Assembly (NCBI GenBank): GCA_965208125.1
Contig: OZ242320.1
Coordinates: 128,001 to 192,000, forward strand
Length of the DNA: 64,000 nt
DNA from: Candidatus Latescibacterota bacterium
GTDB taxonomy: Bacteria; Latescibacterota; UBA2968
Reading direction: 5' to 3'
In this document: one piece after another, positions 40,136 through 47,231 of the stretch
Numbering within the stretch: position 1 is the stretch's first letter
Layout: every line of letters begins with the position of its first letter
The notes under the pieces: generated by a model
Database searches by the model: none
The model's input: the letters and a program-made list of their open reading frames with translations, nothing else
What the model was told of the DNA's origin: nothing
Translations under genes and position numbers: made by a program

Positions 40136-42901
40136 ATGGCAGACAAAACCCTGTATTTATTAGACGGCATGGCACTGGTCTATCGTGGACATTTTGCAAT
40201 GATACGCAATCCGAGGATGACGTCGAAAGGGCTGAACACCTCGACGTTATTCGTTTTTGCCAATACACTATTAGATATTTTGGGCAACACAAAACCCTCA
40301 CATTTGGCCGTAGTCTTCGACACGCCAGAGCCGACATTTCGGGACGAGATATACAAAGAATACAAGGCACAACGAGAAAAAATGCCCGAAGACATAAGTG
40401 GCGCGCTGCCCTACATCGACCAAATGTGTGAAGCGTTCAACGTGCCCGTCATCCGCAAACCGGGCTATGAAGCCGACGACGTAATCGGCACACTGGCAAA
40501 AGAGGCTGAAAAGTCCGGGTTTACAACATATATGGTAACCCCCGATAAAGACTACGCACAACTCGTCTCAAACAAGACATTCATCAGCAAACCCGGACGC
40601 ACGGGCGATGGCGCTGAGATCCTGGGCGTTCCAGAGGTACTGGAACAATGGGAAATTGAGCGTGTGGATCAAGTCATCGACATGCTGGGGCTGATGGGCG
40701 ATTCGAGTGATAATGTGCCGGGCGTGCCGGGCATAGGGCCAAAAACCGCACAAAAATTGATCGCCCAGTACGACAGTGTGGAGGGATTACTCAATCACGT
40801 CGATGAATTGAAAGGCAAACAAAAAGAAAATGTGGAGACATATCGGGAACAGGCATTGTTATCAAAAGAATTGGTCACCATTCACCTCAATGTACCATTG
40901 GACTTTGGATTGGATGACCTCGCGGTAAAAAAACGAGACGAACAAAAATTGAAAACCCTGTTTGCAGAATTGGAATTCAGCACTCTGGGCAAACGGCTAT
41001 TTGGAAGTGATTTTAATATAGATCAGCAACAGATCTCACTCTTCGGCGATGAGACAGTACTGGCGGACGTACCAAAACACAAAACCATTGCGGATGTCGA
41101 ACACGAGTATCACCTGGTAGATACGCCGGCAAAGCGCACAGCATTAATCGAAAAATTGGCACAGCAAAAGACGTTTTGTTTTGATACAGAAACAACGGGG
41201 CTAAACCCGAAAACATGTGAATTGCTCGGTCTCGCGTTTTCATTTCAACTGCACACGGGATATTATGTGCCAATGCCAGAAGACCCGGATGAAAACAGGG
41301 CGGTATTGGAAGAATTCCGCAGAATTCTCGAAAATCCGGACATCGAGAAAATTGGACACAATCTCAAATTTGACCTCGCCGTATTATTGTGGCAAGGGAT
41401 CAGGGTTCAAGGACCTGTTTTTGATACCATGCTCGCCGCTTATGTAACTGCACCTGAAATGCGTCGCGGCATGGATTCTCTATCACTGTCATTATTGGGT
41501 TATGAACCCATTAAAATTGAGTCTTTAATCGGCGAAAAAGAAAAAGGCAAAGAACAAAAAACCCTGCGCGAAGTCCCCCTGGACAAAGTAGCAGAATACG
41601 CAGCCGAAGATGCGGACATCACCTTGCAACTCGCCGAAGTTCTACGTCCCAAAATCAAAGAAATGGGGCAAACGCGCGTATTCAAAGACATAGAATGCCC
41701 GCTGGTATCTGTACTGGCACAAATGGAATACGAAGGCATTCGCATGGAAGCATCTGTAATCGAGGCACTTTCGGAAGACCTACAGGATGAATTAGTCGCC
41801 ATCCGACAGCGCATTTACGACCTGGCCGGTGAAACATTTAATTTAAACTCACCCAAGCAATTGGGCGATATCCTATTTGAAAAATTAAAACTCGACCCCA
41901 ATGCGCGGCGCACAGCCAAGACAAAGCAATATCAGACAAGCGAATCAATTTTGCAGCGGTTGGCTTATAAACACGAAATAGTAGAACAAATTTTGGAATA
42001 TCGAACATATTCGAAACTGAAATCCACCTATCTGGATATGTTGCCGGGTGCGGTATTTAAGTGTACCGGGCACATCCACACGCACTACGAGCAAGCCGTC
42101 ACGGCCACCGGGCGGTTGCAATCGCACGGACCGAATCTGCAAAATATTCCCATTCGCACGGAAAAGGGACGCGAAATTCGCAAAGCCTTTGTGCCTCGCA
42201 ATGAAAATTACACGCTCTTGTCAGCAGACTATTCGCAAATTGAATTGCGCGTAGCGGCTGAACTCAGTCGCGATGATGAGATGCACCGAGCATTTCGAGA
42301 AGGCCTGGATATCCACGCGGCAACAGCAATGAAAATTTACGGATTGGATGAACGCGATGTAACCGACGACATGCGCCGGCAGGCAAAAACCGTAAACTTT
42401 GGCATTATTTATGGAATCTCGGCCTTTGGCCTGGCGCAACGCCTGAATATTCCGCGCTTTGAAGCCGGTAATTTAATCGAGCAATATTTTGAACAATTTC
42501 CCGGCGCAAAAAAGTACATGGATGACACCATTAATTTCGCGCGAGAACACGGGTATGTGGAAACCATGACGGGACGCAGGCGATATTTGCGGGACATCCA
42601 CTCGCGCAATGCCACCACGCGCAAAAGTGCCGAGCGCAACGCAATCAACTCGCGGATTCAGGGTTCAGCGGCCGACATGATTAAAATTGCGATGCGCCGC
42701 GTCCAGGATGCTTTATTTGAACGGGACTTAAAAACGCGCATGCTGCTACAAGTACACGACGAACTCGTCTTTGACATGCACAAAGACGAAGCCGATACCG
42801 TGATGCCCCTAATCGAAGACGCTATGAAAAATGCCCTGCCAATGTCCGTGCCAATCGTAGTGGAAATGGGCATGGGAAATACCTGGCTGGAAGCGCATTG
42901 A
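40136..42901 (+). CDS. polA: DNA polymerase I
   Basis: 5'-3' exo (EADD, DKD, GDSSDN), 3'-5' exo DTET, polymerase motifs DYSQIELR, KTVNFGIIYG, QVHDE. Confidence 0.98.
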   Translation: MADKTLYLLDGMALVYRGHFAMIRNPRMTSKGLNTSTLFVFANTLLDILGNTKPSHLAVVFDTPEPTFRDEIYKEYKAQREKMPEDISGALPYIDQMCEAFNVPVIRKPGYEADDVIGTLAKEAEKSGFTTYMVTPDKDYAQLVSNKTFISKPGRTGDGAEILGVPEVLEQWEIERVDQVIDMLGLMGDSSDNVPGVPGIGPKTAQKLIAQYDSVEGLLNHVDELKGKQKENVETYREQALLSKELVTIHLNVPLDFGLDDLAVKKRDEQKLKTLFAELEFSTLGKRLFGSDFNIDQQQISLFGDETVLADVPKHKTIADVEHEYHLVDTPAKRTALIEKLAQQKTFCFDTETTGLNPKTCELLGLAFSFQLHTGYYVPMPEDPDENRAVLEEFRRILENPDIEKIGHNLKFDLAVLLWQGIRVQGPVFDTMLAAYVTAPEMRRGMDSLSLSLLGYEPIKIESLIGEKEKGKEQKTLREVPLDKVAEYAAEDADITLQLAEVLRPKIKEMGQTRVFKDIECPLVSVLAQMEYEGIRMEASVIEALSEDLQDELVAIRQRIYDLAGETFNLNSPKQLGDILFEKLKLDPNARRTAKTKQYQTSESILQRLAYKHEIVEQILEYRTYSKLKSTYLDMLPGAVFKCTGHIHTHYEQAVTATGRLQSHGPNLQNIPIRTEKGREIRKAFVPRNENYTLLSADYSQIELRVAAELSRDDEMHRAFREGLDIHAATAMKIYGLDERDVTDDMRRQAKTVNFGIIYGISAFGLAQRLNIPRFEAGNLIEQYFEQFPGAKKYMDDTINFAREHGYVETMTGRRRYLRDIHSRNATTRKSAERNAINSRIQGSAADMIKIAMRRVQDALFERDLKTRMLLQVHDELVFDMHKDEADTVMPLIEDAMKNALPMSVPIVVEMGMGNTWLEAH

Positions 42902-42915
42902 AAGATGGAAAACAC

Positions 42916-43485
42916 ATGTTCAACTGGCTCAAAAAACTATTTGCCCCTCCTGTCGAACGCCTGCCGCAACTCGAAATGTTTCGCGATCACCTCAACAACC
43001 TGCCCGAAATTCAGCACATTACCGGCTATGCCACACGCACCTATCGTTCGGGTGACGAAGCCGCCTGGTGTCGCATCATGGAAGGCAATGTGGGCAGCAA
43101 CTGGACAACGGAGAAATGCCGAGCGCAATTGATCAACGATTCCCGCTTCCAGGCAGAGAACCTCTTTTTCATCACCCACAACGACGACCCCATAGCCAGC
43201 GCATGTGCCTGGAAAACACCCGGTCAATCGCCGGAAACGGGTGAAGTTCACATGGTCGCCGCGCACACAGACCACCGAGGCAAAGGACTCGGGCATTTGC
43301 TCAACGCCCTCGTCCTCCATCGCTTAAAAGACCTGGGCTATCAAAAAGCACATCTCAAAACCGATGACTGGCGCCTACCGGCCATCAAAACCTACCTCGA
43401 CGCGGGCTTTCAGCCCCTCAACACCCACGAAAGCCACCCCGAACGATGGGAAGCCATCTACGCCCAGCTCAAAATAAAAAGATAG
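42916..43485 (+). CDS. GNAT family N-acetyltransferase
   Basis: HRGKGLG acetyl-CoA loop; 'LKTDDWRLPAIKTYLDAGF'. Confidence 0.85.
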   Translation: MFNWLKKLFAPPVERLPQLEMFRDHLNNLPEIQHITGYATRTYRSGDEAAWCRIMEGNVGSNWTTEKCRAQLINDSRFQAENLFFITHNDDPIASACAWKTPGQSPETGEVHMVAAHTDHRGKGLGHLLNALVLHRLKDLGYQKAHLKTDDWRLPAIKTYLDAGFQPLNTHESHPERWEAIYAQLKIKR

Positions 43486-43552
43486 CAGTCAGCGATCAGC
43501 GGTCAGCAGTCAGCAAAACAAGCGATTAGCTGATGGCTGAAAGCTGATAGCT
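43484..43552. repeat. Heptamer inverted array filling the gap between convergent GNAT and trpS stops
   Basis: AGCAGTC AGCGATC AGCGGTC AGCAGTC AGC ... GCTGATG GCTGAAA GCTGATA GCT. Confidence 0.88.
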
Positions 43553-43553
43553 C

Positions 43554-44300
43554 TTACCCCATCAACGCATTATACCCCATCCCCATCACCTCCTTGACGT
43601 GCTCCAGCGTGCGCTGTCCTTCAATACGCGCTCTCGAACCACCCAAATTCAAAATATCGCGCACCAGATCGGGCTGTTCTTCAAAACCCTTGCGGCGTAC
43701 CCGAAACGACGTCATAATTTTACACTGACCATCCGTACCCTTCAAGCGCGTGCCATAAACGCCATCGGGAATGGGAAACACCTCGCCGTAAATCCGATTA
43801 AATCGCGCAGCCACTTCCTGCGCCAGTTCAATATGGGGTCTTTGATCTGGCCCCACCGGCACATATCGCGGACGAAAAAGCAAAATATCCGCCGCCTGAG
43901 ACACCGGATATCCCACAAACCCATAAGGCACCCGGTTCCCCAACCCCATCTTACCCATCTCCTCCTTAACTGTCGGATTCCGCAACAAACGCGGCAACGT
44001 CACCAAATTGGAAAAAATCATGGTTAACTCTGCCAGTTGCGGCACCTGTGATTGCAAAAAACAAACGCTTTTTTTGGGATCAAATCCCGCCGCCAGATAA
44101 TCCAGCACCATTTCTCTGACGTGATGCTCCAGATCCTCTGTCCGATCCCGATGCGTCGTCAGCGCCTGATAATCGGCAATCATAAAAAAACACTGAAACT
44201 CATCCTGCATCTCAAACCGATTCTTCAATGACCCGACATAATGTCCCAAATACATTTTACCCGTCGGACGATCACCTGTTAAAACAATTGTGCGACTCAT
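43554..44300 (-). CDS. trpS: Tryptophanyl-tRNA synthetase homolog with in-frame internal deletion (no KMSKS); possible pseudogene or non-catalytic paralog
   Basis: TGDRPTG, YLGH (HIGH variant), IADYQALT, YPVSQAADI, VPVGPDQ; GTDGQCK joins directly to the C-terminal 'FRVRR' helix; 248 aa. Confidence 0.85.
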   Translation of the reverse strand: MSRTIVLTGDRPTGKMYLGHYVGSLKNRFEMQDEFQCFFMIADYQALTTHRDRTEDLEHHVREMVLDYLAAGFDPKKSVCFLQSQVPQLAELTMIFSNLVTLPRLLRNPTVKEEMGKMGLGNRVPYGFVGYPVSQAADILLFRPRYVPVGPDQRPHIELAQEVAARFNRIYGEVFPIPDGVYGTRLKGTDGQCKIMTSFRVRRKGFEEQPDLVRDILNLGGSRARIEGQRTLEHVKEVMGMGYNALMG

Positions 44301-44487
44301 CTCTGTTCCTTTCTTGAGCGATTAAAATCCATAGTTTCCAAAAAAAACGCGCCACCTTCCGGTAGCGCGCGGTGCAAATAAATAAAAATTGCCAGATATC
44401 CGGTGGTGGACATACATCTCCCATCGCGCCTGTCCACCACCAGCGTCCGCCAATATTAAACAGCTCTGTCATCGCACTCAAAAACAT
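44272..44487 (-). CDS. Trp leader peptide 2 (…MTELFNIGGRWWW…), reading through the terminator
   Basis: TGG x3 at 44434-44442, paired 11/11 with 44402-44412. Confidence 0.7.
   Translation of the reverse strand: MFLSAMTELFNIGGRWWWTGAMGDVCPPPDIWQFLFICTARYRKVARFFWKLWILIAQERNRDESHNCFNR
44340..44369 (-). terminator. Attenuator terminator 2 (proximal to trpS)
   Basis: CGCGCTACC-GGAA-GGTGGCGCG followed by T8. Confidence 0.85.
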
Positions 44488-44501
44488 CGCATAATATCCA
44501 T

Positions 44502-44533
44502 AAAAAAAACCGCCGTCAAAAGCCGACGGCGGT
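44502..44533 (-). terminator. Attenuator terminator 1
   Basis: ACCGCCGTC-7-GACGGCGGT followed by a T tract. Confidence 0.88.
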
Positions 44534-44564
44534 CAATTCAGAATTTTCAAATAAATACAATCCG

Positions 44565-44675
44565 TCAGCAAACCCACACAACGGCACGCCACCAGCCACG
44601 GACGGTTTCAGACACACGGGGAGCCAGCACCCTATCGGGCGTCGCATCAGTCAAAATGTGATCGTGCATAGTCAT
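44565..44675 (-). CDS. Trp leader peptide 1 (36 aa)
   Basis: MTMHDHILTDATPDRVLAPRVSETVRGWWRAVVWVC*, GGGAG SD; GCTGACGG at the stop can pair with CCGTCGGC of the terminator. Confidence 0.8.
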   Translation of the reverse strand: MTMHDHILTDATPDRVLAPRVSETVRGWWRAVVWVC

Positions 44676-44700
44676 AACAAACTCCCGTGAAATATCGCCG

Positions 44701-44748
44701 AAAAAATAACGACTTCAACAACTCGTGTCAAGCCGTTTGATTTTCTTT
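44701..44748. repeat. 48-bp direct repeat, copy 1
   Basis: 42/48 identical to 48202-48249. Confidence 0.9.
44703..44731 (-). promoter_or_regulatory. sigma70-type promoter of the leader/trpS unit
   Basis: TTGACA-17 nt-TATTTT. Confidence 0.6.
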
Positions 44749-46219
44749 AGCTCACGAACCGGAACGAATAGAGCTTCACTGACCGCATCACGACGCGAAG
44801 CCGCAGCGGTCCTCGATCCGTGGGGATCCGACGGCCGGCCCCCTGCCACGACACGCCTGTCTTGATTGCATTGGCGACAATCGTCTCGCACGTCTTCAGC
44901 GTGTAGCCTTCCAGGGGACGCCCCTCCTCGTCCTGCAGCTCGACCAGCAGCCAGCCGCTCCCGCCACAATCTACATTCAGCTCGAGCGCCTGACCGTCGA
45001 ATGCCAGCGGCGGAGTCACAAACTCTCCGCCAGAAAGAGACGCATCCGCCGAGACAAAACCGTCCCGCCTCAGGATCGCCCGGAACAGCCCGGTATTCCA
45101 ACCGTCGCGCACCTCATCATTGTGCCGACTTCCCCGGCCCGAATAATAGATCCACATCTCGGTCTCGGTAAGCACGGGCCAGACATTGGCCATCACCATA
45201 CCACCCGATGGCCCTCCATCCAGCCCCCGGCGGATGAACGGCTCCCGGTCTCCCTGATGCGACCATATGATCCCGTCACGGCTCGTGAGGAGCCGGACGT
45301 CCATCGTGGCTGGAAAATCGGACGCTTCCCAGTGGTAGTAAGCAGCGGGCATCATGAAATACGCATCATCTGCCTCGGGATGCTTGTAAACTGCGTTCGT
45401 GTAGTAATCGACCTGCGGCCTGTCCATCGACCGGGGAGGCAGAGGAGCTTCCAGGTCCAGCGCATCCCCTTCCAGGACGACCAGCGTGGGCTGTGACCAG
45501 GTCTTAAAGTCGGGCGACGTGATCCGACCAACGGATCGGTACCGCTTTCCGAGCTTCATTTCCGCCGCCTCGTCCCGTCGCTGGGTCTCGTGCACCCGCG
45601 TATAGCCTACGTAGAGGTCCAGGCTGTCATCCCAGAAGAAAACATTCTGAGTATCGCACATCTGGTCGGGCGGATTCGGCTGGCCCTCATCATACGTCCA
45701 ATGGATCCCGTCGGGTGAATGCATGGCCCAAAGCCCTGGCAGAACACCGGCCTCAATCTCATCATCCCTGGGATAGTACTTCGACCAGAGCCGGTAGCGC
45801 GAATCAGCGGGCGCGCGTTCGTCTATATAGACCGTCGCGCCCTGCATACTCTGACGCTCATCCAGCGGGGCGACGATGTTGTTGGCGGTGCTACCCTGGA
45901 ACGTGACGAGGTGCATCTCCGGCTTCTGCCAGGAGACCCCGTCTTCGGACTCCGCATAGCAGAGACGAACCGCCCCTTCCTGCGGACCTCCCGATTTCAT
46001 CTGTGCGCCGTACCAGAGCCGGAAGTGCCGCTCCCCTTCCCGGATCACCGTGTTGTACGCCCCAATCCCGAGCTTCTCCCACGGCTTGTCCGCCCGGAGC
46101 ACTGGCTCGGGGGACTGCAAAGGCGGATTCATACGGAGATTGACACCAGAGACTCGATCAAAGAAGCGCGCGTCAATGAAAAGCTGTTTCCGGCTCCCAA
46201 CCTGGACTGCAGCGGCCAT
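44747..46219 (-). CDS. Hypothetical glycosidase-like beta-propeller protein (GH32/43-clan-like)
   Basis: 'QLFID', Asp-box-like 'ESEDGVSW', 'SPDGIHW', 'SRDGIIW'; 'LRRDGFVS', 'LYSFRF'. Confidence 0.65.
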   Translation of the reverse strand: MAAAVQVGSRKQLFIDARFFDRVSGVNLRMNPPLQSPEPVLRADKPWEKLGIGAYNTVIREGERHFRLWYGAQMKSGGPQEGAVRLCYAESEDGVSWQKPEMHLVTFQGSTANNIVAPLDERQSMQGATVYIDERAPADSRYRLWSKYYPRDDEIEAGVLPGLWAMHSPDGIHWTYDEGQPNPPDQMCDTQNVFFWDDSLDLYVGYTRVHETQRRDEAAEMKLGKRYRSVGRITSPDFKTWSQPTLVVLEGDALDLEAPLPPRSMDRPQVDYYTNAVYKHPEADDAYFMMPAAYYHWEASDFPATMDVRLLTSRDGIIWSHQGDREPFIRRGLDGGPSGGMVMANVWPVLTETEMWIYYSGRGSRHNDEVRDGWNTGLFRAILRRDGFVSADASLSGGEFVTPPLAFDGQALELNVDCGGSGWLLVELQDEEGRPLEGYTLKTCETIVANAIKTGVSWQGAGRRIPTDRGPLRLRVVMRSVKLYSFRFVS

Positions 46220-46283
46220 GAGATACCCCTTCCTGTTGTCGATGCCAACTACAAAAAGTTTACCTGATCCATCCTGTACATCC

Positions 46284-47231
46284 CTACACACACGCAAGAG
46301 CGGCCAACAGGGCTTTGATATACCCGACTGAGTAGGCGAGCGCGTGGGTATTGCCAGCAGGCCCATCCCCTTCAAGCGTCGGATAGTGATCGGGATTCAG
46401 ACAGCCGTCGTAACCCACCCGCTTCAACTCGCGCAAGATCTTGAACATGTTCATATCCCCATCGTCGAGCAGGACCTCTTCGAACGCACCGGCGGTTGCA
46501 AAGCTCGCACGCACGTTTCGAAAGTGAACCTCGAAGAGACGTCCCTTTCGCCCGTAGTTGTGAATCTCGTCCAGGACGAGTGGAAGTCCTCCGGCCTCCG
46601 CGCGTGTCCCACAACAGTAGAGGTAACCGACACACGGGTTCGGAAAGGCATCGATCACCCGGTGGAATCCCAGCCCGCCGAAGAGCGCATCCTGCGTCGG
46701 CGGGTCGGAGGGATGCATCATCAGTCTGACGCCTGTGGCTTCCGCGACGGGCACGAGCCGTTCGTAAGCCGCACAGACGCGCCCCCACCGCTGCTCTCGC
46801 ACTGCTATGGCCGGTGGCTCATCCCCCTCTGCGAGTGACAGACTGTCCCCTCGAGCCAGGTAACCACCGCGGTGCGATGCCCGATAGTGTCCAATCATCC
46901 AGGGATCCGTGGAATAGTCGAAGTGCACCCGTCCAAGAGGATAGCCTGCTTCGCCAAGGACCCGGACGGACTCACACGCGATGTCGAGTTCCTCCTCAGC
47001 ACCATCCTCTTCGTCCATGAACCGCTTCGATAGACCGGGCAAACTGATGCGATTCACCTGCAGACCCCAAGAATGAACCCGTTTCTTCATTTTTAGTGCC
47101 TCGTCCAGATCGAAGACGCCACGGTCATCGGTCGGCAATGGCAGGGCATCGACGCAATCGACGCCCAACTGGGTCAGCTGGCGCAACGTCGCATCGGACG
47201 GGTCTTGACACCAGGCAGCTACTTTGATCAT
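46284..47231 (-). CDS. Mannonate dehydratase (UxuA)-family protein
   Basis: HPSDPP, HFRNV, DDGDMNM, PDH, AYSVGYIKAL. Confidence 0.85.
   Translation of the reverse strand: MIKVAAWCQDPSDATLRQLTQLGVDCVDALPLPTDDRGVFDLDEALKMKKRVHSWGLQVNRISLPGLSKRFMDEEDGAEEELDIACESVRVLGEAGYPLGRVHFDYSTDPWMIGHYRASHRGGYLARGDSLSLAEGDEPPAIAVREQRWGRVCAAYERLVPVAEATGVRLMMHPSDPPTQDALFGGLGFHRVIDAFPNPCVGYLYCCGTRAEAGGLPLVLDEIHNYGRKGRLFEVHFRNVRASFATAGAFEEVLLDDGDMNMFKILRELKRVGYDGCLNPDHYPTLEGDGPAGNTHALAYSVGYIKALLAALACV

Follow-up and report, generated by a model that had tools for sequence, protein, structure and literature searches.

A second tryptophanyl-tRNA synthetase gene that has lost its KMSKS loop and anticodon-binding domain is probably retained as a pseudoenzyme in an order of Latescibacterota

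We analysed a stretch of 64,000 nucleotides (nt) from Candidatus Latescibacterota bacterium (contig OZ242320.1, positions 128,001 to 192,000; hereafter the window), in which the minus strand at 43554-44300 carries a short gene related to tryptophanyl-tRNA synthetase (TrpRS). This gene probably encodes a TrpRS-derived protein that is kept by selection and does not aminoacylate tRNA, that is, a pseudoenzyme; we put the probability of this reading at about 0.6. Codon alignment with 12 full-length relatives shows that the open reading frame (ORF) is the 332-amino-acid (aa) auxiliary TrpRS of sister species (95–97% identical) minus exactly 84 codons (252 nt), where the first-pass annotation had estimated an in-frame loss of about 80–90 aa. 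With these codons went the KMGKS loop, a C-x20-C-x6-C-x2-C motif and the helical anticodon-binding domain in its entirety. Adenylation requires KMSKS, and the absent domain is the one that binds the anticodon. From the established mechanism of TrpRS, a product without both should be unable to aminoacylate tRNA. The core-only synthetase is nevertheless maintained, as seen from a ratio of nonsynonymous to synonymous substitution rates (dN/dS) of 0.106, from constrained singletons, from the recurrence of reduced forms and from their survival down to 43% identity. Since the protein would not charge tRNA, yet is constrained, recurrent and long-lived, we infer a role independent of aminoacylation that resides in the core and the C-terminal helix.

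The first-pass annotation, made from the letters alone, had described a 248-aa ORF in which RLKGTDGQCK runs straight into IMTSFRVRR, with YLGH at the HIGH position and with YPVSQAADI and VPVGPDQ retained. All of this was confirmed in the sequence and its translation. The parts of the gene are as follows.

43554..44300, minus strand: coding sequence (CDS) of the auxiliary TrpRS paralog, allele with the 84-codon deletion (del84), 248 aa; TrpRS Rossmann core and C-terminal helices
44306..44312, minus strand: AAAGGAA, resembling a ribosome-binding site, 5 nt before the ATG; read from the sequence and conserved in the upstream alignment
44241..44252, minus strand: YLGH at the HIGH motif, codons 17-20, first His changed (H17Y); private to the source genome
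43884..43910, minus strand: YPVSQAADI, codons 131-139, helix of the Trp pocket; carries the indole-contacting Asp
43842..43862, minus strand: VPVGPDQ, the GxDQ motif, codons 147-153; kept here, gone from older reduced forms
43716..43718, minus strand: deletion junction at codon 195 (ATT), 252-nt in-frame loss, from the codon alignment and bridging contigs
43587..43688, minus strand: C-terminal helix with the paralog-specific LGGSxARIEGQRTLE block, codons 205-238; in frame past the junction, predicted local distance difference test score (pLDDT) 93-98

The minus-strand letters of the junction are AAAATTATG at 43721-43713. Here AAG AT|G GGG ... GAT TT|T ATG became AAG/AAA ATT ATG, with a junction ambiguity of 1 nt and no notable repeat, and the KMGKS of full-length alleles was cut down to K-I, so that no loop of the KMSKS type is found. 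The Pfam family of class I W/Y synthetases (PF00579) matches residues 3-195 (E 1.4e-42). The NCBIfam trpS model TIGR00233 gives 190.1 bits (cut-off 176.75), although the match covers only model positions 2-187 of 328. The cut-off is passed, and automatic annotation would therefore name the 248-aa ORF a tryptophan--tRNA ligase; this is a practical warning, because the product would be taken for a working enzyme. Among solved structures the best match was TrpRS II of Deinococcus radiodurans (2a4m/1yi8, E 1.4e-63): ORF residues 3-199 correspond to chain residues 2-200 and residues 195-240 to 282-327, and about 82 residues are passed over in frame. The helical anticodon-binding domain is absent with the 84 codons, and Foldseek alignments cross the target with the same gap. 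A protein search returned 248-aa forms at 94–97% identity and the 332-aa form P0007 at 95%. In P0007 the four-Cys motif starts at C237 (C237-x20-C-x6-C-x2-C) and lies wholly inside the segment that is deleted in the window. Judging by this motif, the parent of the window allele would be a second TrpRS of the Fe-S type.

The Trp-pocket Asp and GxDQ are both present in the ORF by the motif test, and Trp binding itself is only predicted. The Asp (D138) is invariant across 107 aligned sequences. In bacterial TrpRS it touches the indole N, as described in section 3.4 of PMC2954223. The HxGH signature is missing from the ORF (YLGH); HLGH stands in 6 of the 8 complete deletion alleles and in 12/12 aligned full-length alleles. 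The earlier claim that both ATP motifs are damaged is thus right for the source genome, and the HIGH change is private to it. The source genome is a single contig of 5.75 Mb, 96% complete. An intact trpS was looked for, and an ordinary housekeeping copy was found elsewhere (G000:C1:4400941-4401930, 355 aa, HLGH and KMSKS, 313.5 bits). It is about 44% identical to the paralog and lacks the four-Cys motif. In an AlphaFold2 model built with 107 aligned sequences, the fold of the 248-aa product is predicted to be intact. The mean pLDDT is 88.2 and the predicted TM score 0.86; only residues 181-200, around the junction, are of low confidence, and the C-terminal helices are modelled with confidence. 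Against TrpRS structures, Foldseek gave query-normalised TM scores of 0.83-0.87.

We assessed whether the deletion could be an assembly or binning artefact, with the missing 252 nt still present in the organism. The genomes are metagenome-assembled genomes, and contigs of public runs aligned on window positions 43300-44800 include some that speak for this idea. One contig of run X1 leaves the window sequence at 43717. Contigs of run X17, an RNA library, end at 43717, and their loose end codes for the end of the deleted segment, so X17 holds a full-length allele. On the other side, the identical junction occurs, with no stops, in 9/21 species genomes of genus g1 (many are single-contig), and it is bridged by contigs of three runs from different studies. 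A 133-nt contig of X1 crosses the junction with 0 differences from the window, a 1309-nt contig of X2 (a sponge metagenome) spans 43556-44747 with no gap at the junction, and a 388-nt contig of X15 (a sponge metatranscriptome library) covers 43582-43969 with 20 differences and 0 gaps. There is also variation linked to the junction, since AAA at codon 194 is found in 4/8 deletion alleles only. An artefact is therefore vanishingly improbable. The shared junction, the independent runs and the dN/dS of 0.106 contradict both outcomes that the first-pass annotation had kept in view, an artefact and a plainly decaying second TrpRS with a strain-private neutral deletion. The del84 contigs and the full-length contig of X17 show that both alleles exist in nature. 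The runs that contain this stretch are mostly sponge metagenomes. Among the 21 genomes of the genus, ten carry a full-length form (330-332 aa), nine del84, including that of the window, and two other short forms. No internal stops were found in the paralog copies of these 21 genomes, and no frameshifts or stops in the 11 reduced copies.

Selection was estimated as dN/dS by the Nei-Gojobori method over codons common to all sequences. Between del84 alleles it was 0.106 (dS 0.19, 28 pairs), between full-length alleles 0.100 (dS 0.16, 28 pairs), and between the two classes 0.102. The part before the junction gave 0.060 in del84 and 0.072 in full-length alleles. The 53 codons after the junction gave 0.23 and 0.16, respectively, so the frame is still read, and the deleted segment gave 0.17 in the alleles that retain it. 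Private mutations, counted in 16 alleles, numbered 17 nonsynonymous and 29 synonymous in del84, and 10 and 18 in full-length alleles. Compared with a neutral nonsynonymous share of 0.77, the del84 counts give a binomial p of 7.5e-9, or 1.6e-6 with transition bias. The deletion allele is under purifying selection as strong as that on intact alleles. Relatives with the same deletion and a dN/dS below 1, named beforehand in the first-pass annotation, do exist (9/21 genomes, 0.106). Nonsynonymous singletons fell in HIGH or GTDGxxK in 5/17 cases in del84 and 0/10 in full-length alleles (Fisher p 0.12, motif window chosen post hoc), which suggests, non-significantly, relaxed selection at the ATP site. 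Their clustering in the ATP motifs gave p 0.0007, a value not to be relied on, as the window was picked after the hits.

The deletion alleles do not form a clade on the gene tree, where at least 7 state changes are needed. In a tree of a 6.7-kb rpoB region, which as one marker region of metagenome-assembled genomes stands for the species tree, carriers are scattered among non-carriers with good support. G027 (full) lies within a carrier group at 98-100, and G013 (deleted) stands beside G011 and G023 (full) at 94. AAA at codon 194 is confined to four deletion alleles that come from different rpoB clades. The scatter of carriers on both trees indicates that the del84 allele recombines among species. 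Because the junction has just 1 nt of microhomology, a repeated identical deletion is unlikely. The simplest reading is a single deletion event, after which the allele moved between co-resident species by homologous recombination or was kept as a long-lived polymorphism.

Reduction of this gene is not confined to one event. The sister species G030 and G024 each have an in-frame deletion of 87 codons, though not the same one (dN/dS 0.19): each retains a piece that the other lost, and G021, their next relative, carries the full-length form. All three independent deletions in genus g1 are in frame and retain the last ~53 codons. Metagenome proteins have further junctions: P0029 and P0033 keep KMGKS and lost the domain only, and the junctions of P0032 and P0121 are different once more. 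All of these proteins were taken from a protein database, in which in-frame survivors alone are visible. When whole genomes of the order were searched in six frames, reductions were found to recur in two families (f1 and f2) of this one order of Latescibacterota. In f2 the reduced copies lie immediately downstream of the housekeeping trpS. The copies outside genus g1 have the following sizes.

G036 (f2): 234 aa
G037 and G038 (f2): open frames of 258 and 254 codons stop to stop; the G038 protein is 237 aa
G042, G044, G047, G050 and G051 (f2): 269-308 aa
G010 (f1): 259 aa

In genus g10, HIGH, GxDQ and KMSKS are gone from the copies and the middle part is scrambled, yet the frames remain open at dS 0.3-1.1; dN/dS is 0.28-0.47, compared to 0.05-0.09 for the adjoining housekeeping trpS. 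The reduced forms P0042, P0139, P0237, P0227 and P0144 (43–66% identity) likewise lack HIGH, KMSKS and the domain. In a search of 1.84 billion cluster representatives, reduced forms appeared as separate 50% clusters, down to 43% identity. A phylum-wide search with P0237 gave matches at E<=1e-45 in families f1 and f2 only (13/168 genomes). The g10 copies have four near-invariant islands: residues 36-49, 72-96, part of 131-153 and the LGGSxARIEGQRTLE block. This block is almost invariant in every reduced form (1-2 positions are altered in L070, P0139 and P0237) and is unlike the housekeeping enzyme. HIGH is altered in the window, in G029, G024 and P0017 and in older forms, and intact in 12/12 aligned full-length alleles; the indole-binding Asp is retained in most reduced forms. 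As far as motifs can tell, this erosion would fit a loss of catalysis. The non-catalytic paralog that the first-pass annotation had offered as one option fits these data, as selection persists, erosion of ATP motifs is limited to reduced forms and the pocket Asp is mostly kept. That the allele is shared and recombining, that intact alleles coexist with it, and that reduction recurs across the order had not been foreseen.

The course of events that we favour is the following. The starting point would be an auxiliary TrpRS gene, separate from the housekeeping trpS, whose anticodon domain was of the four-Cys, Fe-S type; this gene would have lost 252 nt in frame. The Rossmann core with the Trp pocket would have been spared, along with the C-terminal helix and part of the dimer surface. 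As a conjecture, the role left to the product would be to bind Trp and to dimerise, with itself or, in an inactive heterodimer, with the housekeeping TrpRS, and the paralog would thereby sense or modulate the charging of tRNA-Trp. A heterodimer or sensor mechanism of this kind is a tentative proposal, and we regard it as rather doubtful. A complex model of the product with the housekeeping TrpRS has the canonical dimer interface with an ipSAE of 0.84 (best control 0.03), which may only mirror solved TrpRS dimers. The mark used for such models was attained by 58/80 solved complexes and 2/110 mismatched pairs; model runs had at least 82% of contacts in common, with a partner pLDDT of at least 79. 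Since TrpRS dimers, which pair through the CP1 surface, are already solved, the model shows likeness, not binding. We also considered whether the conserved islands are the dimer interface, and this was unsupported: of the interface only residues 82-96 are conserved, and residues 97-130 are not.

The main rival is slow decay, in which a dispensable second TrpRS was killed by the deletion, and the frame would look open and constrained only since the allele is young in each lineage and is patched by homologous recombination with intact alleles from co-resident species. The loss of KMSKS and of the anticodon domain agrees with it, as do the private changes in HIGH and GTDGxxK described above, and several further observations weigh against a retained pseudoenzyme. 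The approximately unbiased test rejects monophyly of the deletion alleles (p 6.6e-5), and no fixed difference but the junction separates the del84 and full-length classes; recombination with intact alleles could import constraint into a dead allele. G009 has a reduced form of the G010 type with 3 in-frame TAG stops, a true pseudogene. With P0007 as the query (E<=1e-15), the paralog was not found in G004, G007, G008 or 13 f2 genomes, and it is dispensable in some relatives. The rise of dN/dS from 0.1 (del84) through 0.19 (delB/C) to 0.28-0.47 (g10) could itself be slow decay. Locus L065 (G050) lacks the pocket Asp, and G010 and the g10 copies lack GxDQ. Modelled interface residues of old reduced forms are 0.32-0.61 identical to full-length forms versus 0.43-0.60 elsewhere, which, at the level of the model, would go against dimerisation alone being what selection retains. 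The X15 contig is a relative's deletion form in an RNA library, and DNA carry-over is possible there. Slow decay has to account, in turn, for a dN/dS of 0.106 at dS 0.19 and for singletons as constrained as those of intact alleles. It also has to account for 11 genus copies without frameshifts or stops, for three independent in-frame deletions that keep the last ~53 codons, and for reduced forms that are stop-free to 43% identity at dS ~1, with leader and terminator conserved upstream. We consider it unlikely.

Selection might also act only against harm, if a useless product must still fold and be non-toxic, or translation of the ORF might matter rather than the protein. Constraint is indeed spread across the fold core with no single surface, and the catalytic loops decay first. 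Such selection is, however, usually weak for a conditionally expressed gene, complete loss would be easier, and the near-invariant LGGSxARIEGQRTLE block, distinct from the housekeeping enzyme, looks like a functional surface. There is also no co-oriented downstream gene, the GNAT gene there being convergent. These explanations are quite improbable. Finally, the product may still be an enzyme, as a minimal TrpRS core able to activate Trp, or to pass it on to an acceptor not recognised by its anticodon. Engineered TrpRS core fragments are a parallel to this idea. The product retains the Trp pocket and GxDQ as well as K194, which is the first Lys before the junction, P0029 and P0033 lack the domain alone and keep KMGKS, and truncated paralogs with new chemistry are described for other synthetases in PMC9437257. 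Against it, the KMSKS loop is absent here, HIGH is mutated in the window and in other reduced alleles, a sign of relaxed selection at the ATP site, and older reduced forms lost HIGH, GxDQ and KMSKS together. We regard a surviving catalytic function as very unlikely.

If the gene does encode a selected pseudoenzyme, the transition is nearly caught in the act: parent and reduced allele lie one deletion apart, coexist and are both constrained, and older relatives show the end of the path, with all ATP motifs lost and the core and C-terminal helix retained. The set would be a natural series for learning which parts of a class I synthetase core serve without catalysis and how pseudoenzymes arise. 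A bolder version is improbable in our estimate, namely an undescribed family of TrpRS pseudoenzymes of this Latescibacterota order, arising repeatedly when an attenuator-controlled second TrpRS loses its ATP loop and Fe-S anticodon domain, and acting as a dominant-negative partner of the housekeeping TrpRS. In TrpRS, the subunit that reads the anticodon is not the one that charges, which would make a mixed dimer dead. In that case induction through the Trp-codon leader would supply a dominant-negative subunit, and tRNA-Trp charging and growth would come under a feedback switch. Intact and deleted alleles in co-resident sponge symbionts would then mean that selection keeps both states and that the deletion moves by recombination.

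Two leaders with Trp codons lie upstream of the gene. Their parts are as follows.

44703..44731, minus strand: promoter-like TTGACA-17-TATTTT upstream of leader 1; consensus match only
44565..44675, minus strand: leader-1 ORF, 36 aa, with WW and a third W; stop codon inside GCUGACGG
44500..44534, minus strand: terminator 1, a 12-bp hairpin (44534-44508) and U-run
44491-44519, minus strand: second promoter-like site, TTGACG-17-TATTAT, overlapping the 3' arm and U-run of terminator 1; consensus match only
44272..44487, minus strand: leader-2 ORF, 71 aa (...GGRWWWTG...CPPPD...), which crosses terminator 2 and overlaps the CDS start
44400..44442, minus strand: leader-2 hairpin with the Trp codons (44434-44442) in its 5' arm and the 3' arm UGUCCACCACCGG (44400-44412); z -4.75
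44339..44370, minus strand: terminator 2, a 10-bp G+C-rich hairpin (44370-44347) with a GGAA loop, then a U-run

Read by eye, the layout of leader 1 appears classical: GCUGACGG can pair over 8 bp with CCGUCGGC in the 5' arm of terminator 1, a pairing that minimum free energy (MFE) folding does not favour. Use of the second promoter-like site would make transcription of leader 2 independent of leader 1. The leader-2 hairpin is conserved, and 0/200 shuffles fold as well. An element of the leader-2 type (WW(W) and a terminator) precedes the full or reduced paralog at 28/30 loci by pattern, and the other 2 have variant spellings. The sequences of the terminator stems differ among f1, g8, g9 and g10 and between families f1 and f2, and the hairpin is retained. 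As the Trp-codon leader is kept and the stems differ, a link to Trp-tRNA is well supported. The first-pass annotation had the gene regulated by Trp and induced only on starvation. The leaders and terminators bear out the former; the direction of the response, induction on starvation, did not gain support, as no antiterminator is favoured by folding. The antiterminator was never preferred in MFE folds of either leader, and the terminators persisted when region 1 was removed or a 28-nt ribosome footprint was masked. The classical mechanism through a thermodynamic antiterminator was therefore left without MFE support for both leaders, and for leader 2 no antiterminator candidate was seen. The leader-2 ORF ends past the U-run at 25/27 loci and within the hairpin at 2/27. 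Translation-coupled read-through is the paradigm of pyrBI, and the layout of the leader-2 ORF would also fit it. Rfam gave sub-threshold matches only (Trp_leader at 20 bits versus a gathering threshold of 41, and terminator-driven small-RNA matches). The source genome holds no second copy of the leader-2 element, so no regulon can be inferred.

The leader peptide has a conserved CPPPD/RPPPD at window positions 44400-44412, with LPPG and PTPG in G038 and G037; this is because region 2 of leader 2 complements the Trp codons. At loci L005 and L006 no stop separates the leader ORF from the main CDS, with which it shares the frame; this explains the 301-aa gene call P0001. Further upstream, a 542-aa ORF (44747-46375, minus strand) stops just before the promoter-like site of leader 1 and has no Pfam match at E<=0.001.

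Downstream, the TrpRS-like gene is convergent with a gene for a GNAT acetyltransferase (42898-43485, plus strand; PF00583, E 3.2e-13). An ORF with a similar N-terminal motif (LPQLEML...) stands beside the reduced paralog, also convergent, in G036, G010 and G009. No conserved co-oriented neighbour was found in family f1; f2 has the tandem with the housekeeping trpS. Between the convergent stops of the TrpRS-like and GNAT genes lies a small dispersed repeat (43453-43556), with a depth above 1000 in X1. Contigs of X1, X2 and X17 lack 71-73 nt at 43485-43555/43557, and the source genome has 17 more partial copies of the repeat, which looks like an insertion resembling a repetitive extragenic palindrome or a miniature inverted-repeat transposable element. 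Besides rpoB, 21/21 genus genomes have a second, rpoB-like ORF of ~1033-1130 aa stop to stop (in the source genome at G000:C1:5480704-5481705, outside the window). It matches only parts of the rpoB model (~450-535, 610-645, and 1009-1145 or further) and is on this account an rpoB-like paralog.

The closest known system by sequence is TrpRS II of D. radiodurans, which is also among the top fold matches (query-normalised TM 0.87). It too is a second, stress-linked TrpRS beside a housekeeping one (PMC9437257). Unlike the window product, TrpRS II is full length and active and works with nitric-oxide synthase. That family (PF02898) was not found in the source genome (96% complete), control genomes gave matches, and a partnership of this kind was rejected on this result. 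The top Foldseek match to the window model is the [4Fe-4S] TrpRS of Thermotoga maritima (2g36). Its motif C-x22-C-x6-C-x2-C, which according to PMC2954223 binds a [4Fe-4S] cluster, has its counterpart at the equivalent place in the C-x20-C-x6-C-x2-C of the paralog's full-length alleles. The same paper states that in organisms with two TrpRS genes just one has the Cys motif, as is the case here, where the housekeeping copy lacks the cysteines. Its section 3.3 describes TrpRS as an obligate dimer in which the anticodon is read by the other subunit. The difference is that the window allele has deleted all four cysteines, and a cluster in the full-length relatives is only predicted. Control of a second trpS by a Trp-codon leader attenuator is shared with Streptomyces trpS2/trpRS1: for S. 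avermitilis, PMC1262725 describes a predicted attenuator ahead of trpS2, and an inducible indolmycin-resistant TrpRS1 is cited in reviews, PMC9437257 among them. The Streptomyces enzymes are intact synthetases, whereas the window product would be unable to charge tRNA and its leader 2 departs from the classical layout, with an ORF that enters the terminator. In Anabaena, the paralogous dimeric ThrRS T1 and T2 can form mixed oligomers under stress (PMC4787780). Both of those partners are active, whereas mixed dimers here are a model prediction.

In kind, the window product is most like GluQ-RS/YadB, PoxA/EpmA, HisZ and the cyclodipeptide synthases, core-only synthetase derivatives retained for another role. 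Among them, HisZ serves as a non-catalytic regulatory subunit, and cyclodipeptide synthases resemble the TyrRS/TrpRS core without the tRNA-binding domain (PMC9437257). As TrpRS duplicates, PMC9437257, a review of 2022, lists TrpRS II, the nitric-oxide synthase partner, and the indolmycin-resistant TrpRS1, and its table holds no TrpRS-like truncated protein. Apart from eukaryotic mini-TrpRS and unrelated cases, our literature searches for a truncated bacterial TrpRS paralog returned nothing. Several families of aminoacyl-tRNA synthetases are known to have given rise to proteins with new roles, and what would be novel here is the origin from TrpRS, caught at a polymorphic stage. The known truncated paralogs, none of them derived from TrpRS, are old and fixed, whereas the paralog described here is 95–97% identical to a working-looking parent and is still segregating among species.

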